From assembly GCA_001824435.1 (NCBI GenBank), contig MHXH01000016.1, positions 14,970-78,969 of the forward strand: 64,000 nucleotides of DNA, given 5' to 3'. The notes under the pieces are model-generated. The model worked only from the letters and a program-made list of their open reading frames with translations. It ran no database searches and was not told where the DNA came from. Below, piece by piece: positions 1,655 through 52,136 of this stretch. This stretch comes from Parcubacteria group bacterium RIFCSPLOWO2_01_FULL_48_18 (GTDB lineage: Bacteria > Patescibacteriota > Minisyncoccia > UBA6257 > WO2-01-48-18). A program made the translations under genes and the position numbers. Within the stretch, counting starts at the first letter, position 1, and each line of letters begins with the position of its first letter.

Positions 1655-1966
1655 TGGTGCCGCGGGAGGGAATCGAACCCCCTACGCCAGCCTCTTCCTG
1701 GCTGATTTTGGACTATATCATCTCCGTTCTTCGCGCAAGAGTGCGGAGTCGGGCGCTTGTGCAAGATTATTGTTGGGACTCACTTGCTAGTCTCTACACC
1801 TTCTAAGAAATCTCCACCGGCTGGCGGAGCCCCCCTTAGCTTGGCTCGGGGTTGTTCTGACGGCATGTCGGAGTGTTCCCCGAATTCACCCGATTTTACA
1901 GTCTGCATTACTGCAGAAAGCCCCAAAGAATTTCAGGGCTGCGCTCTACCAATGAGCTACCGCGGC
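1655..1966 (-). tRNA. tRNA-Phe (anticodon GAA) interrupted by a ~237-nt intron in the anticodon loop. The intron is probably group I.
   Basis: The 5' exon (1966..1930, minus strand) reads GCCGCGGUAGCUCAUUGGUAGAGCGCAGCCCUGAAAU: acceptor stem, U8, D-arm GCUC/GAGC and anticodon stem CAGCC. The 3' exon (1692..1655) reads GGCUGGCGUAGGGGGUUCGAUUCCCUCCCGCGGCACCA: anticodon stem partner GGCUG, T-arm GGGGG-UUCGAUU-CCCUC, acceptor CCGCGGC complementary to GCCGCGG, discriminator A and encoded CCA. The intervening ~237 nt contain a GACUA...GAGUC P7-like pair. Confidence 0.8.
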
Positions 1967-2064
1967 AATCATGTTTAGACTATACCAATTTTTTGATTCC
2001 TTCAATATGCCCCATAATTTTTATGTTTAAGGGTGGGGGGCGGCGCGAAACGAGGTAGGAAACC

Positions 2065-4615: not shown

Positions 4616-4651
4616 TCTACACTATCATACACTGTAGTATGATAGTGTAGA
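4616..4651. promoter_or_regulatory. Perfect 15-bp inverted repeat (TCTACACTATCATAC-N6-GTATGATAGTGTAGA) in the divergent plsC / T4SS-locus intergenic region
   Basis: Seen directly in the sequence. It has an AT-rich stem and is flanked by an A-tract on the 5' side, so it reads as a hairpin followed by T6 on the minus strand. Confidence 0.4.
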
Positions 4652-4733: not shown

Positions 4734-5528
4734 ATGGAAGCCGTTTCTTTTCCGAGAAAACTGGCAGCCGCACTTATACTGATTGCCGGCATTGCGGGAT
4801 TGTATGCGAGCGTTGCTCCGAATACGTTTTGGGCATTATTCTCCAAAGACAAAGAGGGCGCGGGCAGAGACGCCATTACAGCATACCTCGCGCCATCAGC
4901 GCAAGAATCGCAAAAACCGCTCTATGTCGAACCATACGGAGACGCCGCGGCTGCTGCGTCCGACAACCTTACCGGCCTGCTCGCTGACACACTGTCAGAT
5001 CAGCTCATGGCCGACGTCGGCGCCGAGAGCTTCCTGGGAGAGGGCAGCGCAGACATCTCGGAAACGCTCCCGGACTATTCCACTCTTCTAGAAAACGAAC
5101 TCGCCAAGGTCGATCCCTCCCGCATTTTCAAGGCAGGAGCATTTGACATCGTTGTCATCAACGACAATAGCCGCGAAGCAAAAAAGAAATATGACGAACG
5201 CGTAACGCCGGTCGTGGAAAAAATCTTCGCGGGCCTCAATGACAATGCATCGTCATTTTCGGAAAAAGACCTCGCCCAAGTCGTCGATAACCACAACGCG
5301 GCCATCACCATCGCTCTCGCAACGCCGGTGCCGAACGACTGGGCAGAATACCACAGAAAGGGAGTTGCCTATCTGATGGAACGAAGGGAGATTTTTCAGG
5401 CGCTTAGCGCCGTACACGACGATCCGGTAAAATCGCTTGCCGCGCTTCAATACCTCAACGCGTTCGAAGTCGAATTTACGCAATATCTAAAAGAGTATTC
5501 GGAAATCATAAAGGGCGCGACACAATGA
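4734..5528 (+). CDS. Hypothetical membrane-anchored protein, first gene of the T4SS-like locus
   Basis: An N-terminal hydrophobic segment is followed by an acidic, Ala/Asp-rich soluble region. Confidence 0.45.
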   Translation: MEAVSFPRKLAAALILIAGIAGLYASVAPNTFWALFSKDKEGAGRDAITAYLAPSAQESQKPLYVEPYGDAAAAASDNLTGLLADTLSDQLMADVGAESFLGEGSADISETLPDYSTLLENELAKVDPSRIFKAGAFDIVVINDNSREAKKKYDERVTPVVEKIFAGLNDNASSFSEKDLAQVVDNHNAAITIALATPVPNDWAEYHRKGVAYLMERREIFQALSAVHDDPVKSLAALQYLNAFEVEFTQYLKEYSEIIKGATQ

Positions 5529-5590
5529 AACCCTCATGCCTATCAACAGGGCGGGGCATACATTAATCTGCAATCTGCTATAATCAAACT

Positions 5591-7003
5591 ATGGGCGCCG
5601 CGAAAATAACGGTCCTGGCAATCATCGTCGCAGTCCTCGCGCTGGCGCCGCTTTCATTTTCGCCGCCGGGCATGCACGGCGCCTCCTCAATAATCACGCG
5701 CCAAGATGCCCTTGCCGGAGGACTAGCGGGCATCATACACGACCCAATCAGCAATATCAGAAGAATCATCGAATACATCGCGGGCAACGTTGGAAGGGTT
5801 CTCCTGGAAGCGCTTAAGCAAAAAGCTCTCGAGATGCTGACGCAAAAAATGACCGCGTATATCAGCAACAAGGGCGGGGTCCCGAGATACGTTACCAACT
5901 GGCAAAAAGAATTAGGCGATGCGTTCGGCACCGGGGCAGGAAGATTTGTCGACGAAGTTTCAGGGCTCGTACTATCAAATAAGCTCTGCCAAAATTTGCA
6001 GCAACCGGTGCTCGCCGCATTGAAAAATTTTCAATTCCAAAGCCCGTACGGCACAAGGAACGCCTGCAAGCTTAGCACCGTTGTTTCCAATGCCAATGCG
6101 TTCTTTGGAGACTTTTCCAAGGGCGGATTTGTGGCTTACAACACCCTCATGCAGCCGGAGGGCGGAGGCAATATCTACTGGGGCCTTATTACCGCAATGC
6201 AAGAAATGCGCGCGCGGGGGGACGCAGAAGCAGATGCGGCAAAATCCTCTGCAGAAGCGGGGAGCGGACTTAAAGACATAAAATACTGCCCCCCTGCGCT
6301 GTGGCAAGCAAGCTGGATCAAGGGCAAGAGCCTGCCCTATTCAGATCCTACGTGGGAACAACACTGCATATCTCCGAAGGTGACCACGCCCGGGAGCGCC
6401 AATTACGAAATGGTCGCGAGCGTCATGGACAAAGAAAAGGCGCAAATCGTCAACTCCGAATCTCTCGCCAAGGCGCTTACCGGCATTATTGCCAACTCGC
6501 TTGCGAGCAAACTAACCAAACTCGGGGAAAAAGGGCTATTTCAGGTCACAGAAACAACATCAACGGCGATCGATGTCTGTCAAGGACTTACCGGAGAGGA
6601 CCTCGTCTTCTGCCAAGCGACAAAGGATCCTCCGAATATCACCGCTGCCCGCAGCGCGGCTCTTACCGAGATAAACAAGCGGCTTAACGATTACAGCACC
6701 TATATTTCCGATCTAAAGTTGCTGCAAACGTGCCAGAGGGGCTTGTGTATCAAACGCGGGGGCAGCGCGTTGAGCACTTGTACGCTTGTATCTCCGCCTA
6801 TGAGCGACACGCAGAAAAAGATCGACGAAGCAACCTCGGTGAAAAACTCGCTGACTTCCGCAAAAAGCACAGTATCCACTGCAACTGACCCGCAGGCAAT
6901 TCTGCTTGCATACTCCAGCATCAAAGGATTGGGCAGCATTATTTCCATCCAAGACACTAAGAATCAGCTGGCGCAATGCCAGACAGACCTGGCTGCGCCG
7001 TAA
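5591..7003 (+). CDS. Hypothetical secreted Cys-containing protein with a signal peptide
   Basis: Signal peptide MGAAKITVLAIIVAVLALAPLSF. A TATAAT element lies 7 nt upstream of the ATG. It is co-oriented with the T4SS-like genes. Confidence 0.45.
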   Translation: MGAAKITVLAIIVAVLALAPLSFSPPGMHGASSIITRQDALAGGLAGIIHDPISNIRRIIEYIAGNVGRVLLEALKQKALEMLTQKMTAYISNKGGVPRYVTNWQKELGDAFGTGAGRFVDEVSGLVLSNKLCQNLQQPVLAALKNFQFQSPYGTRNACKLSTVVSNANAFFGDFSKGGFVAYNTLMQPEGGGNIYWGLITAMQEMRARGDAEADAAKSSAEAGSGLKDIKYCPPALWQASWIKGKSLPYSDPTWEQHCISPKVTTPGSANYEMVASVMDKEKAQIVNSESLAKALTGIIANSLASKLTKLGEKGLFQVTETTSTAIDVCQGLTGEDLVFCQATKDPPNITAARSAALTEINKRLNDYSTYISDLKLLQTCQRGLCIKRGGSALSTCTLVSPPMSDTQKKIDEATSVKNSLTSAKSTVSTATDPQAILLAYSSIKGLGSIISIQDTKNQLAQCQTDLAAP

Positions 7004-7007
7004 CATT

Positions 7008-9209
7008 ATGAAAAGGAAAATGTCAAAGCTTCTCCCCATTGCATTCTTTACCGTACTAATAACGGTGAGTTTACTGATTCCAGCAGACGCGCACGCTTGG
7101 ATACATGATGAAATCGCCAGCGCATTAGGAGGCGCAGTTCTCGATGTTATGTCTTTCTTCATAGGAATGGTAGCAAGCATTCTGGGTATTTTCGTGTCGA
7201 TAGCCACGATCTTTACCGGCGCGATGCTTAAGATAAACTTCGATGTTTTAAAAAACCCGGTGGCCACGGTCGGATGGGTCGCAACCAGAGATTTTGCCAA
7301 TCTGGGATTCGTACTGGTGCTTCTGATTATCGCCTTCGCGACAATTCTGCGGATCCAAAGCTACGGCATGAAAAGCCTTTTGTGGAAACTTATTATCGCC
7401 GCAGTGCTTGTCAACTTCAGCTTTACCATTGCCGCAGCCTTTATAGACTTCAGCCATATTCTCGCAAAAACTTTCATGAACAGGTCATTACCCCAAGGCC
7501 TATCCGGGCCCATGGACTACGGCACCCATCTTGCCGGAAATCTCAATCCTCAAGCGCCCTACGCTGTCGCGAGCAGCGCATCGGCGCTGGCTAAAACCGC
7601 AAGCTTTACGTCCTTGTTCCTTTCGGTTCTCTTCGGATTCGTATTTGCCATACTCTATACTCTCATTCTCATAGTCGTGATAAGTGCGCTGGGCGTCCTT
7701 TTCGTCGTACGGTTTGTACACCTCACATTTCTACTCGTCCTTGCGCCGCTTGCATGGCTCTTTTGGGCAACTCCAATGTTAAGCCACCTTGCAAAACAAT
7801 GGTGGAACTCGTTTTTACGGTGGGTCTTTTTCGCTCCGGCAGCGCTCTTTTTCATTTGGCTCTCGCTTAAAATTAGCACGCAGGCAGGTGCGCAAAAATG
7901 GTTTGAGGATACCGACGCATCACTTATAAAAGCAGGCGTAGCTACCAAGCTAGATAGTTCTATTCTTACCGGAAACCTCCTGACAAGCCTCGCAAACATG
8001 TTCCTTCTAGGCAGTCTTCTTGTCGGAAGTGTTATCGTGGCGGACAAAATGGGGGTAGACGGAGCGCGCGCAGCAGTTAACGCCGCCACTAAGGTTCCGC
8101 GGGCTACGGCCGAATTTTTGAAACGGCGCGGCGCCCTGCTTAAAAACAAGGCCCTTCAAAAGGCAATGGAAAGCAAGGCGGGTAAAAAAGTGGCGGGCGC
8201 ACTCCAAGCAATCCCGCTTTTCGGAGGCATTGTAACCCCCGCCCTAGCAGATCTTAGGGCCGGGGCCAAAGGAAAAGAAGTAGAGTTCTATCAGGAGAAA
8301 TATGCAAATTATGACCAACAGCAACTCGAGGCTGCCATGCGGCAGACAAAGAATTCTGCAGAAGCCGCTGCCCTGTCGGGTATTGCCGGTAAGAAAGGGT
8401 TTTTGCGCGCTGCCAATACAAACCTTAGTAGGAAGGAGAGGCTGCAATTGGCCGTAGTCGCGGATCAGGCTGGCCTTGCCCCAGATGGAACAAAACACTC
8501 AGACCAGATTGTAAAAGGTGACCCGACTCTAGCGTACAATATAGCCAGACTAGCTGGGAAAAACGATGAAGATAGCATGGCCGAAATGAGCAAATTTATG
8601 AAAGAAAAGATGTCTCCCGAGGATATAGCCAGAATGGACCCTTCGGCAGCCGACTTTGATCCCAAGAAGGACATTGCTGATCCTAAAAATATTGAAAATC
8701 GCCTCAGGCTTCACGTTGCTCTTTTGCTAGACACGGGTAGGCTTGGACGCGTAATCAGCGAGGGTGGGCCAGCGGTTGACTCCATTGAAAAAACTCTAAA
8801 GTGGGCACGGGCTAATCGGGACGAGGTGAAAAAAGAAGACGCCATACTCAAACTACCCCCGGATAAATCCAGAGAGAGAAGTATGGACAGACTGCTGGAC
8901 TATTGGGAACAGTCTCCTGTTACGGCTGGCCGTAAACTGCCGGTCGCTGCAGAAGAAATTAAATATAATGCCGCCGAAACATTCGGCAACGCCGACAACC
9001 AACGCACGGTCAAAATGGTACTAAGCCTAGACATCGGACGGCTCGACGAAATCATAAAAGACCCGAATCCTCTGGTACCCACCAACTTCAAAGACACCCT
9101 ACAGCAGATTAAGAGCAATATAAACCTCCTAACCGACCAAGAAAAGAAACGGATCGGGGGCCACATTAGGTACTGGAACTCTCTTAATTCCGCTAATCAA
9201 ATTACGTAA
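7008..9209 (+). CDS. VirB6/TrbL-like polytopic membrane protein with a long hydrophilic C-terminal extension
   Basis: A signal/TM segment, then at least 6 predicted TM helices across the first ~330 aa, then a ~400-aa Lys/Asp/Ala-rich tail. It sits upstream of the VirB3- and VirB4-like genes. The start was set to ATG 7008 to avoid overlap with the preceding stop. Confidence 0.45.
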   Translation: MKRKMSKLLPIAFFTVLITVSLLIPADAHAWIHDEIASALGGAVLDVMSFFIGMVASILGIFVSIATIFTGAMLKINFDVLKNPVATVGWVATRDFANLGFVLVLLIIAFATILRIQSYGMKSLLWKLIIAAVLVNFSFTIAAAFIDFSHILAKTFMNRSLPQGLSGPMDYGTHLAGNLNPQAPYAVASSASALAKTASFTSLFLSVLFGFVFAILYTLILIVVISALGVLFVVRFVHLTFLLVLAPLAWLFWATPMLSHLAKQWWNSFLRWVFFAPAALFFIWLSLKISTQAGAQKWFEDTDASLIKAGVATKLDSSILTGNLLTSLANMFLLGSLLVGSVIVADKMGVDGARAAVNAATKVPRATAEFLKRRGALLKNKALQKAMESKAGKKVAGALQAIPLFGGIVTPALADLRAGAKGKEVEFYQEKYANYDQQQLEAAMRQTKNSAEAAALSGIAGKKGFLRAANTNLSRKERLQLAVVADQAGLAPDGTKHSDQIVKGDPTLAYNIARLAGKNDEDSMAEMSKFMKEKMSPEDIARMDPSAADFDPKKDIADPKNIENRLRLHVALLLDTGRLGRVISEGGPAVDSIEKTLKWARANRDEVKKEDAILKLPPDKSRERSMDRLLDYWEQSPVTAGRKLPVAAEEIKYNAAETFGNADNQRTVKMVLSLDIGRLDEIIKDPNPLVPTNFKDTLQQIKSNINLLTDQEKKRIGGHIRYWNSLNSANQIT

Positions 9210-9220
9210 GCTTTAACCAC

Positions 9221-9571
9221 ATGCTTTCCCGCCAACAAGTAACCCAAAAACTTTCCACGCTCCCTCCTGACATTAGAGAATGGCTTATTTCTCCTGAAGT
9301 TGCTTTTTACATACGGAAGTTGGGGCAGGACCTTGAACTGGTCCGCGTCCAGACCGAACGGATTTCCGAGCTGATTTTAAGCGTCGCAGTCGGCGCAATT
9401 ACAGCCACAGAATGCCTAAACACTCTACAGGAAGATCTGGCCTTGAAACCGGAGACCGCCAGAAGGGTGGCAGAGCGGATTTACACCGAAATATTCAGCC
9501 GCATACAAGGCTCGTTGTTAAAACTCGGGGTTGATATACGAGGACTCGTGCGCCCGCAAGGGCCGTCGTAG
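9221..9571 (+). CDS. Hypothetical protein (116 aa)
   Basis: ORF in operon context with no recognisable motifs. Confidence 0.35.
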   Translation: MLSRQQVTQKLSTLPPDIREWLISPEVAFYIRKLGQDLELVRVQTERISELILSVAVGAITATECLNTLQEDLALKPETARRVAERIYTEIFSRIQGSLLKLGVDIRGLVRPQGPS

Positions 9572-9644
9572 AAATTAACTTTACGCTCGGATCTGCCCTC
9601 AACCTAGCCCCCGGGTGCGGGCTGCTCCGGCGTTATTAAATTGC

Positions 9645-9980
9645 ATGGACGCCCCCCCAAACGAAAAACCCAAAGACGAACCTGCGCCGTTCATTATAGG
9701 CGTTGGTTTTGCCGCTCCGGCGGCTCCGGCAACAGGAGAAGACTCTTCTGAAAAAAAACCAGAGGGGATCCCCACGGCCGAACCACAGGATAAATCCTTC
9801 GACGCGGCTACTTCGACTACGCTCAGTACGGGCCAGGATAAACCCCACATGCTTTTTACAACCGGAGCTGAAAAAATTAAGCCGATCTCCGAAAGCAGGC
9901 GGCCGTCAATGGGCCCGGTAGTTCTGGAAAAACAGAAGAAGGAAACGCCGAAAGCGAGAATAGAACTTCCGGAAGAGTAG
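9645..9980 (+). CDS. Hypothetical Pro/Ala-rich small protein with an uncertain start
   Basis: Low-complexity ORF. The track starts it at 9615, and MDAPP at 9645 is a plausible alternative. Confidence 0.3.
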   Translation: MDAPPNEKPKDEPAPFIIGVGFAAPAAPATGEDSSEKKPEGIPTAEPQDKSFDAATSTTLSTGQDKPHMLFTTGAEKIKPISESRRPSMGPVVLEKQKKETPKARIELPEE

Positions 9981-10030
9981 ACCCTAGACCTTAGGCTTTA
10001 GGCTCTAGGCTTTAGGTTTTAGGTTTTAGA
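9978..10030. repeat. Tandem heptamer array (TTAGGCT/TTAGGTT ...), left flank of four-helix-bundle cassette 1
   Basis: Direct reading: tagaccctagaccttaggctttaggctctaggctttaggttttaggttttag. Confidence 0.7.
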
Positions 10031-10086
10031 CGTTGCGTTAGACGCGGAAAAATTAGGATGTAATTTCTAAACCTCTAAAAGCCGAC

Positions 10087-10442
10087 ATGCACACTTATAA
10101 AGACCTTATCGTCTGGCAGAAGTCTATAGAACTGGTTACAAAAATATACCTCTTGACAGAAGGCTTTCCAAAAGAAGAAATCTATGGCCTAACGTCGCAA
10201 ATGAGACGCGCTGCCGTATCCATAGCTTCGAATATTGCTGAAGGCAGGCTACGAGGACATCCAAAAGAATTTAAGCAGTTTTTATTAACTGCTTATGTGG
10301 CTCTGGCGGCGAACTAGAAACACAGATTGAAATCGCCAAACGCCTACCCACCACAAGACGCCTCGATTACACAAGAACAGACGCCCTGCTTAGCGAGGTG
10401 ATGAAAATGTTAAATGCGATGATCTCAAGGACTAGCGCCTAA
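10087..10442 (+). pseudogene. Four-helix-bundle protein (23S rRNA intervening-sequence protein / Avd-like family), frameshifted
   Basis: The N-terminal 76 aa (YKDLIVWQKSIELV...GLTSQMRRAAVSIASNIAEG) match the family. The conserved C-terminal part (GSGGELETQIEIAKRL...MLNAMISRT) continues in another frame after a 2-nt indel near 10297-10300. Confidence 0.65.
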
Positions 10443-10474
10443 CGCCTAGCGCCTAACGGCCTAGCGCCTAAACC
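10429..10474. repeat. Tandem heptamer array (CGCCTAA/CGCCTAG), right flank of cassette 1, inverted relative to the left flank
   Basis: Direct reading. Its reverse complement (TTAGGCG...) mirrors the TTAGGCT array at 9978..10030. Confidence 0.65.
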
Positions 10475-11122
10475 ATGCAGTTTCAAATCCCCCAATTCAT
10501 CGAGACGGAAGATAAAATTGTCGGGCCGTTTACGCTCAAGCAGTTTTTATATTTTGCCGGCGCCGGAGGCATCAGTTTCGTCCTTTACTTCACGCTCAAT
10601 TTTTTCTTCTGGTTTATGATCACATTTTTCCTCGCGCTCGTCGCCGTCGGATTGGCATTTGTCAAGATCAACGGCCTGCCGCTCATCAAAATCCTCATGG
10701 CGGCAGTTGGTTTCATGATGAAGCCGCGGCTCTACGTCTGGCAGAGGCGGCTGGAAGGAAAAACCGTCGAGGTTCCCGAAGACGAGGACGAAGAAACGCC
10801 GGAAAAAGAAAAACCAGCCGAAGACGGGCATCGCCCGGCAATAAGCGGCAGCTTGAGTTCATTGGCCGAAAAGTTGAAAACCGGAAGCTCGTACATTCCA
10901 AAAAGAGAACAACCCATGCCGAGCCGGTTTTCGACGTATACCGCGGCCCCGCCAGCCGCCACCGCTCCGGCCCCAAAAACTGACAACCCACACCAACAGG
11001 CTCCGCAGCCAATCGAAAACCCGACAACACAACCTACGCCGCAACAAAACAACCAGTATGTTGAACTAGAACTGCCCAGCGGAGAAATACAAAAAGCGAA
11101 ACGAGTGGACTATGGTGAATAG
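10475..11122 (+). CDS. PrgI/VirB3-like small membrane protein with a Pro/Gln-rich C-terminal tail
   Basis: The N-terminus (QIPQFIETEDKIVGPFTLKQFLYFAG) plus two TM helices resembles the PrgI (VirB3-like) family. It lies immediately upstream of the VirB4-type ATPase. Confidence 0.5.
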   Translation: MQFQIPQFIETEDKIVGPFTLKQFLYFAGAGGISFVLYFTLNFFFWFMITFFLALVAVGLAFVKINGLPLIKILMAAVGFMMKPRLYVWQRRLEGKTVEVPEDEDEETPEKEKPAEDGHRPAISGSLSSLAEKLKTGSSYIPKREQPMPSRFSTYTAAPPAATAPAPKTDNPHQQAPQPIENPTTQPTPQQNNQYVELELPSGEIQKAKRVDYGE

Positions 11123-11150
11123 ACTAAAGTTGAAAGTTGTAAGTTGAAAG
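11123..11150. repeat. AAGTTGAAAG-type tandem repeat, left terminal repeat of four-helix-bundle cassette 2
   Basis: aaagttgaaagttgtaagttgaaagg. It is the reverse complement of the array at 11591..11623. Confidence 0.65.
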
Positions 11151-11222
11151 GGGTGGATTACAACGAGTAGATTCAAGTTATACGAAGGAGCTAGTTAACC
11201 ATTGATATGATAAAATAAGTAT

Positions 11223-11606
11223 ATGCCGGTAGAAGACCTTGAGGTGTACAAGAAACTTTGCGAACTCGCGCTAGAAATCCATGGAGCTACATTGTCCTTC
11301 CCGCGATTTGAATTGTACGAACTGGGTTCTCAACTAAGACGCTCCTCGAACTCCGCGCCCGCAAACCTCGCTGAAGGCTTCGGTAATAAACACACTAACA
11401 TCTACTTGGAAAGTATCAGCCGGGCGCAAGGAGAAATAAGAGAAACGATACGTCATCTGCGAATGGCCCATCAGAAACAATATATTGTTAAAGAAAAATT
11501 CGAATATTTTATACATGCGTGCCGCGAAAGCTCAAAGATGCTCTACGGACTTGAACGGGGATTAGTACACTCGAAGGCTTTTAAAAATACTACCTTACAA
11601 CTTTAA
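11223..11606 (+). CDS. Four-helix-bundle protein (23S rRNA intervening-sequence protein / Avd-like family), intact and divergent
   Basis: DLEVYKK...FP..ELYELGSQLRRSSNSAPANLAEGFG...GEIRET..HL matches the family pattern. Confidence 0.6.
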   Translation: MPVEDLEVYKKLCELALEIHGATLSFPRFELYELGSQLRRSSNSAPANLAEGFGNKHTNIYLESISRAQGEIRETIRHLRMAHQKQYIVKEKFEYFIHACRESSKMLYGLERGLVHSKAFKNTTLQL

Positions 11607-11623
11607 TCTTTCAACTTTAATCT
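11591..11623. repeat. CAACTTTAATC tandem repeat, right terminal inverted repeat of cassette 2
   Basis: ccttacaactttaatctttcaactttaatct. Its reverse complement shares AAAGTTGAAAG and AAGTTGTAAG with the left repeat. Confidence 0.65.
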
Positions 11624-12280
11624 ATGGTCAACGCGAAACCGGCTACTCAACAAATAGTCGAAATAAAAGAAATTAAGGACGATATCGTATATCTCAAGGG
11701 CGGCGGACTGCGCGCCGTGATTATGGTTTCCGGCGTCAATTTCGACCTGAAATCCGAAGAAGAACAGAATATCCTTCTCTACGGCTATCAAAGTTTCCTT
11801 AATTCGCTTGATTACTCGTTCCAAATCGTTGTTCACTCACGGAAGTTAAACATCGACGGCTACTTGGAAATGCTCCGGCAACGCGAGTTGCAGGAGCAAA
11901 ACGAACTCCTCAAGGCGCAAGTCGCCGAATACGTGGAATTCGTAAGCTCGTTCGTACAGATGAACGCCATCATGTCAAAAACATTTTACGCAGTCGTCCC
12001 GTACGACGTCATCCAGGTAGGGTCAAAAACCATTGCCGGCCTCGGAAGCCTTATGGAAGGAGGATCAAGGGCGCCGGTTGCAACAACAAAGGAAGAAGAC
12101 GAAACCGTAAAAATAACCCAGCTCGAACAGCGAGTCGAACAAGTTCTGGGAGGCATCCGCAGAATGGGACTCCGGGCGGTTCGCCTCAATGCGCAGGAGC
12201 TCATTGAGCTCTACTACAATTTGTATAACCCGGAGGAAAAAGAACGGACGCTCGCAATTGCAAAAGATATGACTACATAG
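11624..12280 (+). CDS. VirB4/TraE-type conjugal-transfer ATPase, N-terminal domain fragment (218 aa)
   Basis: LKGGGLRAVIMVSGVNFDLKSEEEQ is typical of the N-terminus of Gram-positive-type VirB4 proteins. It ends at a TAG immediately before a 93-bp inverted-repeat element. It is in the same frame as 12374..14188. Confidence 0.6.
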   Translation: MVNAKPATQQIVEIKEIKDDIVYLKGGGLRAVIMVSGVNFDLKSEEEQNILLYGYQSFLNSLDYSFQIVVHSRKLNIDGYLEMLRQRELQEQNELLKAQVAEYVEFVSSFVQMNAIMSKTFYAVVPYDVIQVGSKTIAGLGSLMEGGSRAPVATTKEEDETVKITQLEQRVEQVLGGIRRMGLRAVRLNAQELIELYYNLYNPEEKERTLAIAKDMTT

Positions 12281-12373
12281 TCGTATACAGCTTGTAGCTG
12301 GTAGCCGGTAGCTTCTTAATCGTGGTTTAACTTATTACCAAAAAGCTACAAGCTAAAAAGCTACAAGCTAATC
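12281..12373. mobile_element. 93-bp (31-codon, in-frame) inverted-repeat element splitting the VirB4 gene
   Basis: The left end has cagcttgtagctggtagccggtagc and the right end has aaagctacaagctaaaaagctacaagct, forming AGCTTGTAGCT / AGCTACAAGCT inverted repeats. It carries three in-frame stop codons. Confidence 0.55.
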
Positions 12374-14188
12374 ATGGGTTTCATCAATCCGTTTGGCGCG
12401 TCGTCGCCAAAACAAAAAATCGCTGTTCCTACCGCATACGAGATGGGCGGTAAGGACATCAAGGACATAATTTCTCCGCCGGCGCTTGAAATCGAGTCGA
12501 ACTTCCTCAAGCTCGGCAAGAAATTCGTCAAGAGCTACTTCGTATTCACCTATCCCCGCTTTCTTGTCAGCGGCTGGTTTTCTCCGATCATCAACATGGA
12601 CAAGGCGATGGATATCGCCATTTTCGTCCATCCAATCGAAACCGCAACAGCGCTGAAAAAGCTCCGCAGAAAAACCGCTCAAGTCCAAGCGCAGCTCGCC
12701 GAGCGGGAAGAAAAAGGATACGTATCCGACCCGGCGCTCGAAACCGCCTACCAGGACATCGAATCGCTCCGCCAATCGCTCCAGCAATCAACGGAACGCC
12801 TCTTCAATGCAGGGCTGTACTTCACCCTCTACGGAGACACGCTTGAAGAAATAAACGCCGTGGAGTCAAAGATCGTTTCAATCCTCGAGGGCCAGATCGT
12901 GTACACCAAGCCGTGTCTCTTCCAACAGTATGAAGGATTCGTATCAACGCTACCGCTCGGACACGACAAAATACTCATACACACCCCGCTTAATTCCGGA
13001 CCCATTTCTTCGTTCTTCCCGTTCGTTTCTTCTGACCTTACGTCAGACAAGGGTATTCTCTACGGCATCAACCGCCACAACAACAGCCTCGTCATATTTG
13101 ACAGGTTTTCAATGGAAAACGCGAACCAGGTCCTGTTCGCCAAGTCCGGTTCCGGGAAATCCTATACCACTAAGCTCGAAATCCTGCGCTATCTTATGCT
13201 CGGCACCGACATCCTCATCATCGATCCGGAAAACGAGTATCAGAATCTTTCGGACACCGTAGGCGGCGCGTTCTTCAAAATATCCCTGACATCCGATTAC
13301 CACATCAACCCATTCGACATCCCGAAAATTCCGAAAGGAGAAGACCCGGGAGACGTCTTGCGTTCGCATATCGTCAATCTCTCCGGCCTCCTCAAACTAA
13401 TGCTCGGTGGCGTAACGCCCGAGGAAGACGCCGTGTTAGATCGGGCTATCACCGAAACCTACGCCTCACGCGACATCACGCCTGACGCCGACTTTTCGGG
13501 GAAAACGCCGCCGCTCATGCAAGATCTCCAAACCGTGCTTGAAAACATGGAAGGCGCAAAAGACGTTGCCGCAAAATTGGAAAAATATACCAAAGGAACG
13601 TACAGCACGTTCATCAACCAACCGACGAACATCGACGTCAAAAACCGGCTTATCGTATTCAGCTTGCGCGACCTGGAGGACCAGTTGCGGCCGATGGCGA
13701 TGTACATCGTGCTCAATTTCATCTGGGGACTTATCCGCGCAGAGCTTAAACGCCGCCTCCTCATTATCGACGAGGCGTGGTGGATGATGAAAAGCGAAGA
13801 CAGCGCGTCATTTCTCTTCGGCCTGGCCAAGCGCGCGCGGAAATATTACATGGGGGTAAGCACCATCACGCAAGACGTGGAGGACTTTCTAAAGTCACCG
13901 TACGGAAAACCGATCATCACCAACTCGGCAATTCAGATCCTCCTCAAACAGGCGCCTTCTTCTATCGACGCGGTGGCCAAAACATTTAACCTCACCGAAG
14001 CAGAAAAACAACTATTGCTTGAAAGCGGAGTGGGGGAAGGATTGTTTTTTGCCGGACTCAAGCACGCAGCCATCAAGGTCATCGCTTCCTACACCGAAGA
14101 TCAAATCGTCACCACCAACCCGCAACAAATCATGGAGCAACAAAAGCTGTCGGAGCAAATAGAAAAAATGAAGGAAAAAACAAACTAA
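12374..14188 (+). CDS. VirB4/TraE-type conjugal-transfer ATPase, C-terminal ATPase portion (604 aa)
   Basis: Walker A FAKSGSGKSYT and Walker B LLIIDEAWWMM. The YPRFLVSGWFSPII segment is typical of VirB4 just after the N-terminal domain. Confidence 0.75.
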   Translation: MGFINPFGASSPKQKIAVPTAYEMGGKDIKDIISPPALEIESNFLKLGKKFVKSYFVFTYPRFLVSGWFSPIINMDKAMDIAIFVHPIETATALKKLRRKTAQVQAQLAEREEKGYVSDPALETAYQDIESLRQSLQQSTERLFNAGLYFTLYGDTLEEINAVESKIVSILEGQIVYTKPCLFQQYEGFVSTLPLGHDKILIHTPLNSGPISSFFPFVSSDLTSDKGILYGINRHNNSLVIFDRFSMENANQVLFAKSGSGKSYTTKLEILRYLMLGTDILIIDPENEYQNLSDTVGGAFFKISLTSDYHINPFDIPKIPKGEDPGDVLRSHIVNLSGLLKLMLGGVTPEEDAVLDRAITETYASRDITPDADFSGKTPPLMQDLQTVLENMEGAKDVAAKLEKYTKGTYSTFINQPTNIDVKNRLIVFSLRDLEDQLRPMAMYIVLNFIWGLIRAELKRRLLIIDEAWWMMKSEDSASFLFGLAKRARKYYMGVSTITQDVEDFLKSPYGKPIITNSAIQILLKQAPSSIDAVAKTFNLTEAEKQLLLESGVGEGLFFAGLKHAAIKVIASYTEDQIVTTNPQQIMEQQKLSEQIEKMKEKTN

Positions 14189-14191
14189 TCC

Positions 14192-14731
14192 ATGGCCGAA
14201 ACAACCCTGGAACAAAATTATATTGACACAGAGGGGGCGGAGGGGGCTGGGGCATCGGACGATATCCCCCAAGACGAGGAGGGAGGCTCGGCGGGAAACG
14301 AAGCTCAAGCCGCCCGAATGCCGTTTGGATTTGCCGAAACCCTGATAGTCGCTCTTTTTCTTACTATTATCCCCGACATACTAGACCTTGTAAGCACCGC
14401 CGCCCTTGCCACGGTCATCGCAGCGATCATCACATTTGCCCTTGTTATTGTGGACTTCCTGACTGGCATGGGAATGAATATTTATCTTATAATGAAGTTG
14501 GGCGGGCTGAAAGCACGGGTCGCGAAAACGCTTGCCAAAAAGCTGGTTCCATGGATAGTAGCTTGGATTATTGACATGTTCGTTTCCGGAGTAGAGGTAC
14601 TTCCCCTAAGAACGATTACATTTCTCGTAATAGCGGTTCTCTCGAATCTTGAGGCTAAGACAGGGATCGGGCAGAGAGCATTAACCGCGCAAGGAATTAA
14701 AACTTTCCGCGCAAAGGGAATCAAGCCGTAA
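14192..14731 (+). CDS. Hypothetical membrane protein: acidic N-terminus followed by 3-4 TM helices
   Basis: Hydrophobicity pattern. Its start codon lies 4 nt after the VirB4 stop. Confidence 0.4.
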   Translation: MAETTLEQNYIDTEGAEGAGASDDIPQDEEGGSAGNEAQAARMPFGFAETLIVALFLTIIPDILDLVSTAALATVIAAIITFALVIVDFLTGMGMNIYLIMKLGGLKARVAKTLAKKLVPWIVAWIIDMFVSGVEVLPLRTITFLVIAVLSNLEAKTGIGQRALTAQGIKTFRAKGIKP

Positions 14732-14784
14732 CGCATCGAAGGAAAAGGGGCGTATCGGTCATAAAATTACACGCTATTACATTT

Positions 14785-15477
14785 ATGAAGATCGGGGTCC
14801 TTTCGATAAAATACATTTTGCCGATTGGTCTTGCGCTGGCGCTATTTTCAATTGCCATGGCCCAAGCAAATGAACCAGTGCTTATCCTATCGTGGTCTGC
14901 CGATACGAACGTACCGTCCGGCTATGAAGGAAAGACCCTGCCTGTCTTGGATTCCACGATCACCGCATCCGCAGATCTCATAGAAAGAGATAAATTCCTG
15001 GACCTCAGCAGCGCCGAATTTATATGGTCTGTGGATGGCGACGCCTACGGCATCCGGCTCGGCGCACAAACGTTTTCCTTTCCGGTCCGCCAGGCGCGTG
15101 GCGCGAACCATTGGGTACGCCTTGAAATGACGCTGCGCGGCCAGGCATACGAACAAGACCTCTTTATACCGATCAGCTCGCCGCAGCTCGTCATCGCCGC
15201 GCAAACCCCGGACTCCTTGCTTCGCGCGGGCAAGAATACGTTAAACGCCCTTGCTTATTTCTTTTCTGTCGACTCCAAAGAAAGAGATCTCGCCTTTTCG
15301 TGGCAAGTGGACGGCGAAAACGTGCCGGTTGCCGATAACGAGAAACAGGATGAGTTAATTTTGGAGATACCCGAGGGCGCTGAATCCGGATCGGAAATTG
15401 CGATATCCGTTTCCGGACAGAGCGGACTCAATGCTCTCGAATTTGCATCCGGAGACATCGTGATGAGAATTAAATGA
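14785..15477 (+). CDS. Hypothetical secreted protein with a signal peptide
   Basis: MKIGVLSIKYILPIGLALALFSIAMAQA signal peptide. Confidence 0.4.
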   Translation: MKIGVLSIKYILPIGLALALFSIAMAQANEPVLILSWSADTNVPSGYEGKTLPVLDSTITASADLIERDKFLDLSSAEFIWSVDGDAYGIRLGAQTFSFPVRQARGANHWVRLEMTLRGQAYEQDLFIPISSPQLVIAAQTPDSLLRAGKNTLNALAYFFSVDSKERDLAFSWQVDGENVPVADNEKQDELILEIPEGAESGSEIAISVSGQSGLNALEFASGDIVMRIK

Positions 15478-15524
15478 TTCGTCCTCCGGCTTCCTGTGGC
15501 AAACCGGCTGACGGATGGAAAAAC

Positions 15525-15914
15525 ATGAAACTTTTCTTTTTAAAATACTCTACGGCGGCTGGCGCGTTTCTTTCTCTCATGCTGTTTATTTTATGGACGG
15601 CCTCGGCAGAAGCGGTAGCATTTAAGATCGGGTACACATCCGGAGAGATTGATACCTTGGTAAAAAGCGGCGGGGGCTTCGCCGGCTACATAAATAATCT
15701 GTTCCGGTTCGGCCTTAGTGCGGTCGGCATAACAGCTTTCGCCACGATCCTCCTCGGCGCCATAGAATACACGGCTTCCGCGGGAAACAGTTCGCGCCAG
15801 CAGGACGCGAAAGACAGAATTCAAAGCGCCATCTACGGAGTCGTCCTTCTTCTTTTCTCCTATATCCTGCTTAGCACCATCAATCCCAAGATCGTAGAAC
15901 TTAAGCCCCTCTGA
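15525..15914 (+). CDS. VirB2/TrbC-like pilin candidate (small protein with a signal peptide and two hydrophobic segments)
   Basis: A signal peptide, a central hydrophobic helix (SAVGITAFATILLGAI) and a C-terminal TM helix (IYGVVLLLFSYILLSTI) give T-pilin-like topology. The start at 15525 (MKLFF) is preferred over the track's 15474. Confidence 0.4.
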   Translation: MKLFFLKYSTAAGAFLSLMLFILWTASAEAVAFKIGYTSGEIDTLVKSGGGFAGYINNLFRFGLSAVGITAFATILLGAIEYTASAGNSSRQQDAKDRIQSAIYGVVLLLFSYILLSTINPKIVELKPL

Positions 15915-15944
15915 GGCTATGGTTCGCACCCCAAGAATCAAACC

Positions 15945-17042
15945 ATGAAAAAAGTTATTGTTATATTCATCTTAGTACTCATGCTCGCTGCCGCTGTCGG
16001 CGCCATGATTATATTGAGTAAGCGATCGGCGCAGGTCATTACGCAAGAGCGCGCCGTGGAAGAACAGAAAAAAACCGAAGAGCAGAAAAAGCAGGATCCA
16101 CTCAAACGACTTTCCGGCCAGCCGGCACTCGGTTTTTGGTTCTCGCAGGACACGCTATATTACCTCAACGGCGCCGGACAGATTTATTCCGTTAACATCC
16201 AGAACGGCGAGGAAAAGCAAGTCTCTTCCTACGCGATAGAAAACGTGCGAGCCATCACGCCCTCTGCGAAAGGGGATGGAGCGCTCATAACCTTTTCCGA
16301 CCGCGGAGAAAATCTGGTAAGCATGTATCGCGTCGCGGAAAATTCCTGGACGCCGCTCGACAAGAATATACGGTCTGCCGCATGGTCTCCTGACGGCCAA
16401 TGGCTGGCGCAATTACGGGAAACGTTCGGCGGTGTGCTCGTCCTTGAGCTTGTCAAGCTCTCCGGCGGAGAAAGAACCGAGCTCGCCCGCCTATCCATGC
16501 GCGACGCGCGCCTTACCTGGATCGGCGGACAACAACTCATTGTCTCGTCTCCTCCTTCGAAAGATTTTCCGGCCCCTGCGCTCACAATCAACGTCCTAAC
16601 AAAGACCGTCTCGCCGCTCGCGCTTGAAAAACCGGGGCTTTCATTCGCATGGTCAGCGTCAGGTAAACAAGCTCTCGCGTTCTGGGTCGATGACAACGGC
16701 AAAAATCAAACTGCGCTTGTCAATGATTCGGGAGTCGTCCTCAAAAATTTCCAGACGCCACTCCTACCGCACAAATGCGCGTTCAGCGGAGAACAACAGC
16801 TGTACTGCGGCGTGCCGGCAAATGTAAACCTTGCCACCGTGGCCGATTTACCCGATGCATACCTTATGCAAAAGGTTCGTCTTGTGGATCACGTAGCACT
16901 CGTCGACGCACAAACGTCACGTCTCAAGATTATCTTCTCTCGTCAAGAACCCTCGCTCGATATTTACAAACCTCACGTACACGACAACAAACTTTTCTTC
17001 ATCAACCGCTACGATGGCGCCATCTACTCGTTGGAGTTGTAA
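15945..17042 (+). CDS. Membrane-anchored beta-propeller-like (TolB-like) protein, last gene of the locus
   Basis: An N-terminal TM helix and a Lys/Glu linker are followed by repeated strand-rich segments containing WSPDG / AWS motifs. Confidence 0.4.
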   Translation: MKKVIVIFILVLMLAAAVGAMIILSKRSAQVITQERAVEEQKKTEEQKKQDPLKRLSGQPALGFWFSQDTLYYLNGAGQIYSVNIQNGEEKQVSSYAIENVRAITPSAKGDGALITFSDRGENLVSMYRVAENSWTPLDKNIRSAAWSPDGQWLAQLRETFGGVLVLELVKLSGGERTELARLSMRDARLTWIGGQQLIVSSPPSKDFPAPALTINVLTKTVSPLALEKPGLSFAWSASGKQALAFWVDDNGKNQTALVNDSGVVLKNFQTPLLPHKCAFSGEQQLYCGVPANVNLATVADLPDAYLMQKVRLVDHVALVDAQTSRLKIIFSRQEPSLDIYKPHVHDNKLFFINRYDGAIYSLEL

Positions 17043-17132: not shown

Positions 17133-17576
17133 CTAGTCGAACGGCCTCACCACCACGTGTCGATCTATTCCCTCTCCCTCGCTTGCGGTAACAACGTCCG
17201 GCCGCGTCGCCAACTCAACGTGCACCAAGCGCCTCTCATACGCATTCATGGGCGGCAACGCAACTTCTTTTTTTGTCAGCCCAACCTTGCGGGCGGCGAC
17301 TTTCGCAAGCTCCAAAATAAGTTTCTCGCGGTCGCTGCGATAATTGTTGATATCGACAAAAACGGGCACGACGCCCTGCTTGCGGGCTATCTGCTTAATC
17401 ACAAATTCAAGCGCGTCTTTGAGTTCATCCTTGAGAAAAATGGGCTTGCCGACGGCATCATTAATGTATACGGCAAGCCTCTTCTTCTCGCTGTAGTATT
17501 CAACGACCGGCTCCAAGTATCCCATCAGGCGTATGAGCGTGACCGTTGTTTGTTTTAACGATTCGTTGGGTTCCAT
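17133..17576 (-). CDS. jag: Jag/KhpB-like RNA-binding protein (KH + R3H domains)
   Basis: It lies downstream of yidC. The R3H region reads NAYERRLVHVELA. Confidence 0.65.
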   Translation of the reverse strand: MEPNESLKQTTVTLIRLMGYLEPVVEYYSEKKRLAVYINDAVGKPIFLKDELKDALEFVIKQIARKQGVVPVFVDINNYRSDREKLILELAKVAARKVGLTKKEVALPPMNAYERRLVHVELATRPDVVTASEGEGIDRHVVVRPFD

Positions 17577-18292
17577 GTTTTTAGGCTTCTATTAATAACG
17601 ATTTGTTGAATTATACTAAAAATGGTCGTTGTCAGCCAGTACAGGCCGATCGCGGACGGGAGTCCCCATAAGATAAAAATGGTAACTGCCGGCATAGTAT
17701 ACACCATCTGCTTTCCCATATTTGCCATAGGGTTTTTACTTCCCTCGGTCGCCTGCTGTGGCGGCGAAGCCGCCTTAGCCAAGCTCAATTTCCCCTGAAC
17801 AAACTGAGCGGCGGCCGCCACAACGGCAATCGGTATACTCCGCCGCGCAAGATCAACGACGCTTAAAAAGTAATGGTTGATCGGTGCAGATATCCCCGGC
17901 ATAAAACTATATAAATCGCCGTAAGCGGTTTCCGAAAGGCCAACATTAAATACTTTCCACAGCGCGATAAAGACAGGGATTTGGACCGCGAGCAGCATCA
18001 GTCCGCTGAGCGGATTCACCTTATGCTCTCGATAGAGCGCCATCATCAGCTCTGCCTGCCGCGCCTTGTCGCGCTTATGGTCCTCTTGTATCTTTTTCAG
18101 CTGCGGTTGAATCCGCGACATAACCGCCTGCGCATGGGCGCCTTTGTGGAACAAGGGCCACAGCACCACGCGAATAATGATGGTTAAGAGGATGACTGCA
18201 AGTCCCATGTCTTGAAACGTCACTTTGTCATACAAAAAAATGAGCGCGTTCAAGAGCGGTCGGTATAAAATGGCATGGAATAATTCTCCCAT
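17555..18292 (-). CDS. yidC: Membrane protein insertase YidC (short form)
   Basis: Polytopic protein with the conserved YidC/Oxa1 core. It sits in the rnpA-yidC-jag arrangement. The start is at MGELFH, 6 nt from the rnpA stop. Confidence 0.7.
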   Translation of the reverse strand: MGELFHAILYRPLLNALIFLYDKVTFQDMGLAVILLTIIIRVVLWPLFHKGAHAQAVMSRIQPQLKKIQEDHKRDKARQAELMMALYREHKVNPLSGLMLLAVQIPVFIALWKVFNVGLSETAYGDLYSFMPGISAPINHYFLSVVDLARRSIPIAVVAAAAQFVQGKLSLAKAASPPQQATEGSKNPMANMGKQMVYTMPAVTIFILWGLPSAIGLYWLTTTIFSIIQQIVINRSLKTWNPTNR

Positions 18293-18297
18293 CGAAA

Positions 18298-18636
18298 CTA
18301 TCTCGTGGCGCGCCCGAGAAGCGCTCGAAGCTCTTCCCGCATAGAGCCCTCGACCCGCCGTTCCGACATCGCGCCCGATTTTACAAAAACACAAATATCG
18401 TGTCCGCCTCCCGTAACCTCTTCCTTCCGTATCGTTTCTGTCAATACCCTACGTAAACGATTCCTCGCTGCCGCGCGCATACGTCCTCCCACCATGACCG
18501 CATATCTGTTATACGGAAGGCCGCTTGCTTTCGCGCCGACGCCGAGAAAGCGCCCGCGAACAAAACGATCAAACTTCTGCCGCGACCCGGGCAGGCGATT
18601 TCTAAAAAGCGGCAGTCGTAATTTTCTCTTCAACAT
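18298..18636 (-). CDS. rnpA: Ribonuclease P protein component
   Basis: A basic ~112-aa protein between rpmH and yidC. Confidence 0.65.
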   Translation of the reverse strand: MLKRKLRLPLFRNRLPGSRQKFDRFVRGRFLGVGAKASGLPYNRYAVMVGGRMRAAARNRLRRVLTETIRKEEVTGGGHDICVFVKSGAMSERRVEGSMREELRALLGRATR

Positions 18637-18684
18637 AGGTATGGCGAGGGCCTATCCCCCCGACACGGCGAACCGAGATATGCG

Positions 18685-18825
18685 TTACGGACGTGCGTAC
18701 GGCGCAAGCACGCCTCTTTTCTTGCGGCGTCTGCGCACTAAAACCCGACGACCGCCGGGCGTCTGGCTTCTCTTCAAGAAACCATGCGTCCGTCGCCGTT
18801 TCTTCTTTTTCGGCCGGTACGTCAT
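18685..18825 (-). CDS. rpmH: 50S ribosomal protein L34
   Basis: The translation [46 protein letters not shown] matches the L34 signature. It is absent from the ORF track (<60 aa) and was found by hand translation. Confidence 0.8.
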
Positions 18826-19044
18826 TGACATTACTATTGAGATTAGCAAGAATGAAGTAAAAATTCAACGCGTTGCGCGACACAGAACACGGTGCCGCAT
18901 CGCATCCAAAAACCGTCTTATGTTGTCCACACCTTGTACACATTCTCTGCTTAAAATAACTTTGCAACCCTCGACAATATATTTTATGATTCGCACATGC
19001 GCGCCGCATTAATGCCGTCGCTGATGCTTTAAATTTGTTCCCAT
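18826..19044. promoter_or_regulatory. rpmH-dnaA intergenic region, candidate oriC/dnaA promoter with DnaA-box-like 9-mers
   Basis: TTGTCCACA at 18923..18931 is one mismatch from TTATCCACA. TTGTACACA and AT-rich stretches are also present. It sits in the classical rpmH/dnaA divergent position. Confidence 0.45.
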
Positions 19045-20403: not shown

Positions 20404-20594
20404 TAACCCTGTGAAATGGCATTGGATAATTACTGAACAAGCGCGATGTTCCGAAGGACGTCCTGTCGCTTTCCGCTTTATACAGTTTTTCCCCCCAACT
20501 TATACTCCTTCTTTCTCCTTACGAATAGAGACAAAAGAGGATAAAGAATAAGAAACAAAGCGTTGTCCACTTATCCCCTCCCCCTACTATAACT
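20404..20594. promoter_or_regulatory. dnaA-dnaN intergenic region with DnaA-box-like motifs and an AT-rich element (second oriC candidate)
   Basis: TTGTCCACT and TTATCCCC near 20560..20578, ATTGGATAA at 20421, and the AT-rich aaaagaggataaagaataagaaacaaag. Confidence 0.4.
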
Positions 20595-49259: not shown

Positions 49260-49326
49260 GGCGATGTTGTAGTTAAAAGCGTAAAAATTGGAATCATACA
49301 TCGGCCTCAGGGGGGTCGATTTTCTT

Positions 49327-51765: not shown

Positions 51766-51800
51766 AATATGGAATTTGAAATTTGAAGACTATTTGAAAT

Positions 51801-51837
51801 AAAAAAAGTGGCGCTCGCAAACAGCGTGTAGCGCCAC
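51801..51837. terminator. Bidirectional terminator hairpin GTGGCGC-N16-GCGCCAC with an A-tract on the 5' side
   Basis: Direct reading. The GAAATTTGA tandem repeats at 51766..51800 lie just before it. Confidence 0.55.
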
Positions 51838-51862
51838 AGATATGACAGTGCCGTCGTGATAG

Positions 51863-52060: not shown

Positions 52061-52136
52061 GGAGTTCTCCTCGTGTCTTTGGTGGGCTAACTATCAAGCG
52101 GTCCGAACGATTACATTATAGCACCTCATTAATATC

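Follow-up and report, generated by a model that had tools for sequence, protein, structure and literature searches.

Which task could a type IV secretion system (T4SS) serve where the genes of conjugation are missing from its surroundings? The question is raised by a stretch of 64,000 nucleotides, hereafter the window, from Parcubacteria group bacterium RIFCSPLOWO2_01_FULL_48_18 (contig MHXH01000016.1), in which positions 4734-17042 of the + strand hold a run of 14 co-directional open reading frames (ORFs) with short or overlapping spacers. The original prediction, made from the sequence alone, described this run as a type IV secretion-like locus of eleven genes around a VirB4-type ATPase. The ORFs bear out its position, strand and direction, and eleven is indeed the number of conserved core families, although the locus itself has 14 ORFs. 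The conserved core runs g1, g2, the VirB6-like g3, g4, PrgI/VirB3, TrsD, VirB4, g11, g12, a pilin and a propeller. TrsD, two genes of the PF05635 family within the locus, and dnaA and dnaN 2 kb downstream had escaped the prediction. The locus is very probably a chromosomally fixed, oriC-proximal T4SS of Paceibacteria (Parcubacteria, in the candidate phyla radiation (CPR)/Patescibacteria), a monoderm system derived from the MPF_FATA class and devoid of conjugation functions.

Judged by its sequence, the motor of the system is a VirB4 ATPase of the MPF_FATA/CD1110 type. The product matches NCBIfam NF045971 ('VirB4-like conjugal transfer ATPase, CD1110 family') at 9.8e-113 and 378 bits, and Pfam PF19044 (P-loop_TraG) at 1.3e-30. 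The original prediction had staked itself on the recognition of the 12374-14188 product by VirB4 profiles, and the curated equivalog cut-off of NF045971, 325 bits, is passed. The nearest solved structure is the C-terminal domain of Thermoanaerobacter VirB4 (PDB 4ag5, 3.2e-45), followed by R388 TrwK (5e-07), and both expected motifs are present, Walker A as AKSGSGKS and Walker B as LLIIDE at residues 462-467. TrsD matches NF041427 at 4.6e-12 and 46.2 bits, below the family cut-off of 200. When the two proteins are aligned to the profile of CD1110-type VirB4, TrsD covers positions 1-108 and the VirB4 gene begins at position 183; in one related locus (L011, 9392-11764), TrsD and VirB4 are fused in a single ORF of 790 residues. 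TrsD and VirB4 are therefore a full-length VirB4 split between two genes.

The membrane platform is less directly identified. The g3 protein has eight predicted transmembrane segments (a signal or transmembrane segment plus about seven) in residues 1-345, followed by a helical soluble tail of ~390 residues, close to the ~400-residue tail that had been predicted for a VirB6/TrbL-like protein. The same protein, at 100% identity, is found in Parcubacteria group bacterium RIFCSPHIGHO2_02_FULL_48_10. Its homologues supply the family link: of 48 homologues at E 1e-73 to 1e-10, 11 carry a precomputed annotation for PF19590 (TrbL_3), and 14 of 44, each scanned individually, match PF04610 (TrbL/VirB6). 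The AlphaFold2 (AF2) model built from the homologue alignment has a transmembrane core with a predicted local distance difference test (pLDDT) score above 90, and a Foldseek search of this model against PDB placed the R388 stalk protein TrwI/VirB6 first by probability (8rt9_F, probability 0.99, E 0.038). Compared with the TrwI/VirB6 chains of 7o3v, the model gives target-normalised TM-scores of 0.43-0.48. A profile search against PDB returned only coiled-coil noise for the tail. Because the Foldseek E-values are weak, we grade this as convergent indirect support. Taken together, the TrbL matches of the homologues and the best structural matches of the predicted model support g3 as a VirB6-like protein, and it fits the category of 'extended VirB6' (PMC12857230).

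Two smaller proteins, both foreseen, complete the recognisable set. The PrgI/VirB3-like protein matches PF12666 at 3.9e-11 and 43.8 bits (cut-off 27), and its family is present in 73 of 81 loci. The VirB2-like pilin candidate matches PF18895 (T4SS_pilin) at 5.7e-07 and 30 bits (cut-off 26.6); it is encoded in a single copy, has a signal peptide and two hydrophobic helices, and belongs to a family found in 58 of the 81 loci.

The absence of conjugation genes was examined with Pfam scans of ~55 ORFs across the 64-kb window, which found no VirD4, VirB11, relaxase or integrase, as had been predicted. The ~35 ORFs outside the cluster have housekeeping roles (aminoacyl-tRNA synthetases, NusA, ClpP, H+-PPase, UvrABC, threonine-pathway enzymes), and these four types of protein and transposases are all missing among them. 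At the profile level, no cluster protein has a Pfam or NCBIfam match to VirB7, VirB8, VirB9, VirB10, VirB11 or VirB1, a negative that leaves room for distant structural analogues of VirB8 in g1 and g4.

Three lines of evidence bear on the inheritance of the cluster. First, its relatives are numerous and taxonomically coherent. Relatives of VirB4 occur in at least 583 species-level genomes, and we fetched and kept 80 related loci (VirB4 59-70% identical), clustered their ORFs and built family profiles; all those with a taxon in the record are Patescibacteria metagenome-assembled genomes, mostly Paceibacteria. Second, the order of the genes is conserved. In ~40 Paceibacteria loci of sufficient length to judge it, g1, g2, the VirB6-like gene, g4, PrgI, TrsD, VirB4, the small transmembrane protein, the Ig-like protein, the pilin and the propeller follow one another as in the window, and the same loci continue into jag, yidC (reverse strand), dnaA and dnaN. 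Third, the site looks chromosomal: lnt and a PlsC-type acyltransferase gene flank the cluster upstream and jag, yidC, dnaA and dnaN downstream, dnaA starts 2 kb past the cluster end, and GC content is uniform throughout the window, T4SS cluster included. An integrated element or plasmid is recognised by variable presence or insertion site and by a linked relaxase, VirD4/TcpA and integrase or replication module; here the position is constant in the ~40 loci, and no such linked set lies in the 64 kb. Nor were the boundaries of an integrative and conjugative element (ICE) apparent, ARAGORN finding no tRNA in the window and the scans no integrase. The same order at the same site beside dnaA in ~40 species thus argues for vertical inheritance and against an integrated element. 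On this comparative sequence evidence, the cluster is a vertically inherited one at a fixed, origin-adjacent chromosomal site and is not mobile. The earlier view that it is not an obvious conjugative element is upheld by this synteny and by the lack of VirD4, relaxase and integrase genes, adjacent or elsewhere in the window.

This portrait agrees with a published group. A survey of 3,035 Patescibacteria genomes (PMC12102498) reports VirB4 in 80%, nearly all in one clade nested in MPF_FATA. TrsD is the commonest associate of VirB4 there, and next come PrgI/VirB3, VirB6 and PF18895/VirB2-like pilins; VirB8 and VirB1 are rarely detected, relaxases are almost absent, and genes for the type IV coupling protein (T4CP) lie mostly far from virB4 (PMC12102498). 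The survey also describes dnaA and dnaN as abundant near virB4 in Paceibacteria and Microgenomatia. The window has the MPF_FATA-type VirB4, TrsD, PrgI/VirB3, the VirB6-like protein and the PF18895 pilin, and it repeats the Paceibacteria pattern of a chromosomal location near dnaA/dnaN with no relaxase or T4CP near virB4. The stripped-down, VirB4-driven apparatus of reduced-genome lineages that had been proposed thus corresponds to the Patescibacteria T4SS (PMC12102498; PMC10633639; PMC12857230), and we hold its identity as a system of this type with high confidence. All of this is already in print, in papers of 2023-2025: the system as such, the list of its components, the lack of relaxases and the proximity to dnaA. 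The present analysis adds the explicit 11-gene Paceibacteria core, the TrsD/VirB4 split, the g1-g2 fusions and the Ig-like and TolB-like assignments.

What the machine does is best approached through Southlakia epibionticum. In this epibiotic member of the Saccharibacteria, the cluster SEML1_0006-0019, pilin array included, is essential for epibiotic growth by transposon sequencing, and it is without recognisable coupling and relaxase proteins (PMC10633639). Deletion of comEC in S. epibionticum abolishes competence and leaves viability intact (reviewed in PMC12857230), and the essential role of the T4SS is therefore not ComEC-dependent transformation. The leading published ideas on Patescibacteria T4SSs are that proteins are exported to the host or that host material is taken up. 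By analogy with S. epibionticum, the most likely task of the present machine is to carry proteins, or some other non-conjugative cargo, between epibiont and host.

A possible sequence of events can be drawn from what is established for T4SSs, namely from the structures of R388 and F and from the Gram-positive systems. TrsD and VirB4 would jointly act as a full-length VirB4 ATPase, which would dock on a platform of PrgI/VirB3 and the VirB6-like protein at the cytoplasmic membrane. The ATPase would then pull the Sec-inserted pilin out of the membrane and polymerise it, so that a pilus or conduit of the VirB2 type would cross the thin wall. The helical surface module of g1 and g2, the Ig-like g12 and the propeller g14 may constitute the extracellular or wall-spanning part that contacts the host, and such cargo would pass through the assembled machine between epibiont and host cell. 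That the locus encodes a pilus-forming translocator exchanging material with a host is, by this analogy, about an even proposition, and we would place little confidence in any particular cargo or direction.

Several points weigh against this interpretation. Pilus formation is suggested only by the presence of a pilin gene, and the function proposed for Paceibacteria is carried over by analogy from Saccharibacteria. The g3 protein itself has no Pfam or NCBIfam match, so that its VirB6 assignment is transitive, and the Foldseek E-value is only 0.038. The probable placement of VirB4 in the Patescibacteria clade relies only on its nearest relatives. No VirB8-like or VirB1-like component is recognised in the cluster, and a VirD4 homologue could lie elsewhere in the genome, since many lie far from virB4 in the survey (PMC12102498).

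Four further core proteins, g1, g2, g12 and g14, may face outward. The g1-g2 pair lies directly upstream of the VirB6-like gene and is without a Pfam family. g1 has no match in Pfam or NCBIfam, and its family (F15/F14) occupies the equivalent position in ~40 relatives. g2 has no sequence relative in Pfam, NCBIfam or PDB; its profile searched against PDB gave coiled-coil noise only, for the tail, and its AF2 model, all helical with a mean pLDDT of 75, found no Foldseek match in PDB. The g2 family, collected by phmmer against a library of representatives, amounts to 845 representative clusters at E ≤ 1e-3 and 296 at E ≤ 1e-10. A g1-like N-terminal domain is present on 57 of the 150 best g2 representatives (P0052-P0198), and one locus (L012, 2490-4685) has a natural g1-g2 fusion. 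From these fusions it follows that g1 and g2 are two halves of one functional unit, and the fn3, Ig or InlB-repeat ends of a few g2 relatives argue for surface exposure of the family. g2 is a candidate for an extracellular stalk or tip, or for an adhesin partner of VirB6. A VirB1-like hydrolase was also considered for g2 and dropped for lack of support: neither Pfam nor NCBIfam nor PDB gave a match to a catalytic family, and the predicted structure consists of helices throughout.

Downstream of VirB4, g12 belongs to a family present in 68 of 81 loci, whose profile matches phage T4 Hoc (3.5e-09) and the cell surface protein 7biz (1e-4). This Ig-like match, to Hoc and not to NTF2 folds, excludes g12 as the missing VirB8. 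The propeller g14 has weak PD40 and propeller matches of its own in Pfam, and its family profile matches TolB structures in PDB at 1.4e-10, as expected of the TolB-like propeller first proposed for this locus; the family is found in 54 of the 81 loci. A more specific reading, which we regard as tentative and rather unlikely, is that the Paceibacteria T4SS has a lineage-specific extracellular module in which g1-g2 would be the counterpart of VirB5, a stalk or pilus tip on VirB6; the Ig-like protein and the propeller would complete this host-contact device of a pilus-bearing monoderm T4SS.

A pilin gene alongside surface-type proteins (the Ig-like g12, the propeller, and g2 with its fn3-, Ig- or InlB-ended relatives) and the lack of a coupling protein in the window would also suit an organelle for attachment only, in which VirB4 builds a VirB2-type pilus with g1-g2, the Ig-like protein and the propeller as surface adhesins and no substrate passes. 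We consider this improbable. The locus conserves a VirB6-like channel protein with a long cytoplasmic or extracytoplasmic tail as well as a VirB3 homologue, beyond the minimal needs of pilus assembly. This objection is softened by the fact that Gram-negative pilus biogenesis also requires VirB6 and VirB3. Adhesion of Patescibacteria is already served by type IV pili (PMC12857230).

A DNA-uptake machine is quite improbable. Such a T4SS would work as an importer, as do Ced of archaea and ComB of Helicobacter, and supply nucleotides or genes to a bacterium unable to make them, and the biosynthetic capacity of the present organism is presumably reduced. As in importers, relaxase and coupling protein are absent from the window, and ABY1-class T4SS loci co-localise with comF, recG and radA in the survey (PMC12102498). 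The VirB4 protein has a weak, local similarity to CedB (32 bits) and CedD (18 bits), but these scores lie far under the equivalog cut-offs of 700 and 600, respectively, and the cluster has no Ced- or ComB-specific partner and no gene for binding or processing DNA. Moreover, competence of S. epibionticum needs type IV pili and ComEC, and the T4SS is still essential where the loss of comEC spares viability (PMC12857230).

That the locus is the remnant of a decayed or domesticated ICE, still moving DNA with a relaxase and a VirD4 encoded elsewhere and acting in trans, is very improbable and largely refuted: its VirB4 belongs to CD1110, a type from Gram-positive conjugation, and VirD4 homologues are common elsewhere in Patescibacteria genomes, ~100 of which have relaxases (PMC12102498), but the 64-kb window lacks an integrase, relaxase, VirD4, repeats or a tRNA-adjacent boundary, the GC content is that of the rest of the window, the identical site and order by dnaA in ~40 species, with VirB4 60-70% identical, speak for vertical inheritance, and in S. 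epibionticum t4cp is non-essential whereas the T4SS genes are essential (PMC12102498).

The coordinates of the cluster and its downstream neighbours are collected in Table 1. The identification of jag and yidC is based on Pfam R3H and 60KD_IMP, and that of dnaA and dnaN on reading of the translations together with synteny.

Table 1. Genes and inserted cassettes of the T4SS cluster, with the adjoining chromosomal genes (window coordinates).
Feature	Position	Strand	Description
g1	4734-5528	+	N-terminal transmembrane anchor, disordered stretch, helical C-terminal domain; first gene of the cluster
g2	5591-7003	+	Helical, secreted or anchored; Cys-containing conserved core (~45-345), coiled-coil C-terminus
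g3	~7008-9209	+	VirB6/TrbL-like polytopic membrane protein, 733 aa
g4	9221-9571	+	Small helical domain protein, 116 aa
Low-complexity ORF	9615-9980	+	Frame differs from g4
IVP cassette a	9978-10472	+	Frameshifted PF05635 gene 10087-10317(-10442)
PrgI/VirB3-like	10475-11122	+	PF12666; small membrane protein, Pro/Gln-rich tail
IVP cassette b	11119-11625	+	Intact PF05635 gene 11223-11606
TrsD	11624-12280	+	NF041427; homologue of VirB4 N-terminal domain, own gene
VirB4 ATPase	12374-14188	+	604 aa; NF045971, PF19044
g11	14192-14731	+	Small membrane protein, three predicted transmembrane segments, immediately 3' of VirB4
g12	14785-15477	+	Membrane-anchored, tandem Ig-like (Hoc-like) domains
VirB2-like pilin	15525-15914 (alternative start 15474)	+	PF18895
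g14	15945-17042	+	Membrane-anchored TolB-like (PD40) beta-propeller; last gene of the cluster
jag (R3H), yidC (-), then dnaA, dnaN (+)	17133-21719		Chromosomal anchor, outside the machine

Two core proteins remain to be described. The g4 family lies between VirB6 and PrgI in 51 of 81 loci. Its members, 200-400 residues long, have a helical N-terminal domain of ~100 residues, then an extended disordered linker rich in Pro, and in the C-terminal part short conserved motifs (PFIIHEE, RVVHY, IDLR/DPYRE); g4 in the window is truncated at its 116 residues. With their disordered tail and short conserved motifs, g4 proteins may be cytoplasmic adaptors. The low-complexity ORF that follows g4 has no homologue by BLAST and contains 'PAPFII', which resembles the family motif PFIIHEE. 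It was tried as the frameshifted tail of g4, and the hhalign comparison with the g4 family was not significant (E 0.18); judged by the letters, a frameshift splitting g4 is possible. The small g11 matches the positional family F10 of the relatives by hhalign (probability 81%, E 1.2e-5), with an LP..T motif in common.

Upstream of the cluster, between plsC (-) and g1 (+), lies a perfect 15-bp inverted repeat with a 6-nt loop at 4616-4651 (TCTACACTATCATAC...GTATGATAGTGTAGA). This divergent intergenic region has promoter-like hexamers on both strands, and the palindrome may serve the T4SS operon as an operator or as part of a bidirectional promoter. A promoter and terminator scan found no convincing + strand terminator within the cluster, which is weak evidence.

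Two cassettes with genes of the PF05635 family (23S rRNA intervening sequence (IVS) protein/Avd-like four-helix bundle) are inserted in the operon. Cassette a occupies the whole spacer between the preceding stop codon and the start codon of PrgI and is bounded by inverted repeats at 9998-10016 and 10438-10456 (19 nt, 89% complementary). Its gene (10087-10317) matches PF05635 at 4.1e-26. The gene is frameshifted over 10087-10442: the first frame ends ...LLTAYVALAAN, and the conserved remainder (GELETQIEIAKRL...MISRTSA) is in another frame, reflecting either a pseudogene or an assembly indel. Cassette b reaches from the stop codon of PrgI to the start codon of TrsD. Its intact gene matches PF05635 at 4.5e-27, and the arms of its inverted repeat (11119-11151 and 11593-11625; 33 nt, 85% complementary) pair in both the minimum-free-energy and the centroid predicted RNA folds. 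Here and in the related loci named below, the cassettes fill their intergenic spacers exactly, and their arms are imperfect, 19-33 nt long, and built of stop-codon-rich units of 6-8 nt.

Among relatives, PF05635 genes occupy differing spacers of the same T4SS operon, in 10 species; besides the window, the loci are L009, L019, L030, L039, L042, L046, L050, L058 and L076. Of 14 PF05635 genes in the relatives, 12 have flanking inverted repeats, and these repeats outscore each of 100 shuffles as well as the 95th percentile of 147 control genes. From one cassette to the next the arms change in sequence and the stem is kept, resembling the stem-bounded 23S rRNA intervening sequences after which the family is named. 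The cassettes look like mobile elements of the rRNA-IVS type in mRNA spacers, possibly processed by RNase III, and they may bear on the spread of PF05635 genes and on mRNA processing in CPR bacteria.

Three further features were observed elsewhere in the window. A group I intron at 1687-1944 (-) matches Rfam RF00028 with 51.8 bits and sits in the anticodon loop of an apparent tRNA-Phe(GAA) gene, read by eye at ~1656-1976 (-), with the 5' exon GCCGCGGTAGCTCATTGGTAGAGCGCAGCCCTGAA and a 3' exon ending ...GGGGGTTCGATTCCCTCCCGCGGCACCA. An ORF of 795 residues at 45641-48028 has tandem D-Ala-D-Ala ligase units, each of the two Ddl domains being matched in two stretches. Aspartate-family biosynthesis is represented at 49288-55613 by a run of genes for a fused aspartokinase-homoserine dehydrogenase, asd and threonine synthase; this amino-acid biosynthesis exceeds what CPR bacteria are usually credited with.

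As an example from Paceibacteria the locus is a clean one, since it has only one pilin, its VirB4 is split and its 11 conserved genes are well delimited; it presents nothing categorically new. Structural modelling and the comparison with Saccharibacteria gain from it a defined list of parts, including the unannotated g1-g2 family of ~845 sequence clusters.

How does this system compare with known T4SSs? With the minimised Gram-negative VirB/VirD4 systems (R388 Trw, Agrobacterium VirB), the locus shares functional equivalents of VirB2, VirB3, VirB4 and VirB6, and the best structural matches of the g3 model are the TrwI/VirB6 chains of R388. It differs in the split of VirB4 into TrsD and a 604-residue protein and in its monoderm envelope. 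VirB7, VirB8, VirB9, VirB10, VirB11 and VirD4 were not found here, and the set that marks the canonical VirB/VirD4 class (MPF_T), a VirB7/VirB9/VirB10 core with VirB8, VirB11 and VirB1, is lacking from the locus. The Gram-positive MPF_FATA conjugative systems (pCF10 Prg/Pcf, pGO1 Trs, CTn2 CD1110, ICEBs1 Con) have in common with the locus a VirB4 of the CD1110 type, PrgI, TrsD and a VirB6-like polytopic protein, and likewise have no VirB7/VirB9/VirB10 outer-membrane core. Here, in contrast, no relaxase, VirD4/PcfC, VirB8-like protein (PrgL/TraM) or VirB1-like hydrolase is recognised, the cluster is not on a mobile element, and a VirB2-like pilin is present that is lacking there. To our knowledge, the T4SS of Patescibacteria is the only monoderm T4SS with VirB2-like pilins and the only T4SS reported to be essential for its carrier.

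The closest counterpart is the Patescibacteria-clade T4SS itself (Quinonero-Coronel et al. 2025, PMC12102498; Wang et al. 2023, PMC10633639). The shared features are the MPF_FATA VirB4 with TrsD directly upstream, PrgI/VirB3, VirB6, the PF18895 pilin, the lack of a nearby relaxase or coupling protein, and the proximity to dnaA/dnaN. S. epibionticum has a six-gene pilin array where the present locus has one pilin gene, and no gene for a peptidase or lysozyme (VirB1-like) comes after virB4 here. The locus in turn carries the lineage-specific g1-g2 module, g4, the Ig-like g12 and the TolB-like propeller, which are not named in the available portion of PMC12102498, and its operon has the two PF05635 cassettes as insertions.

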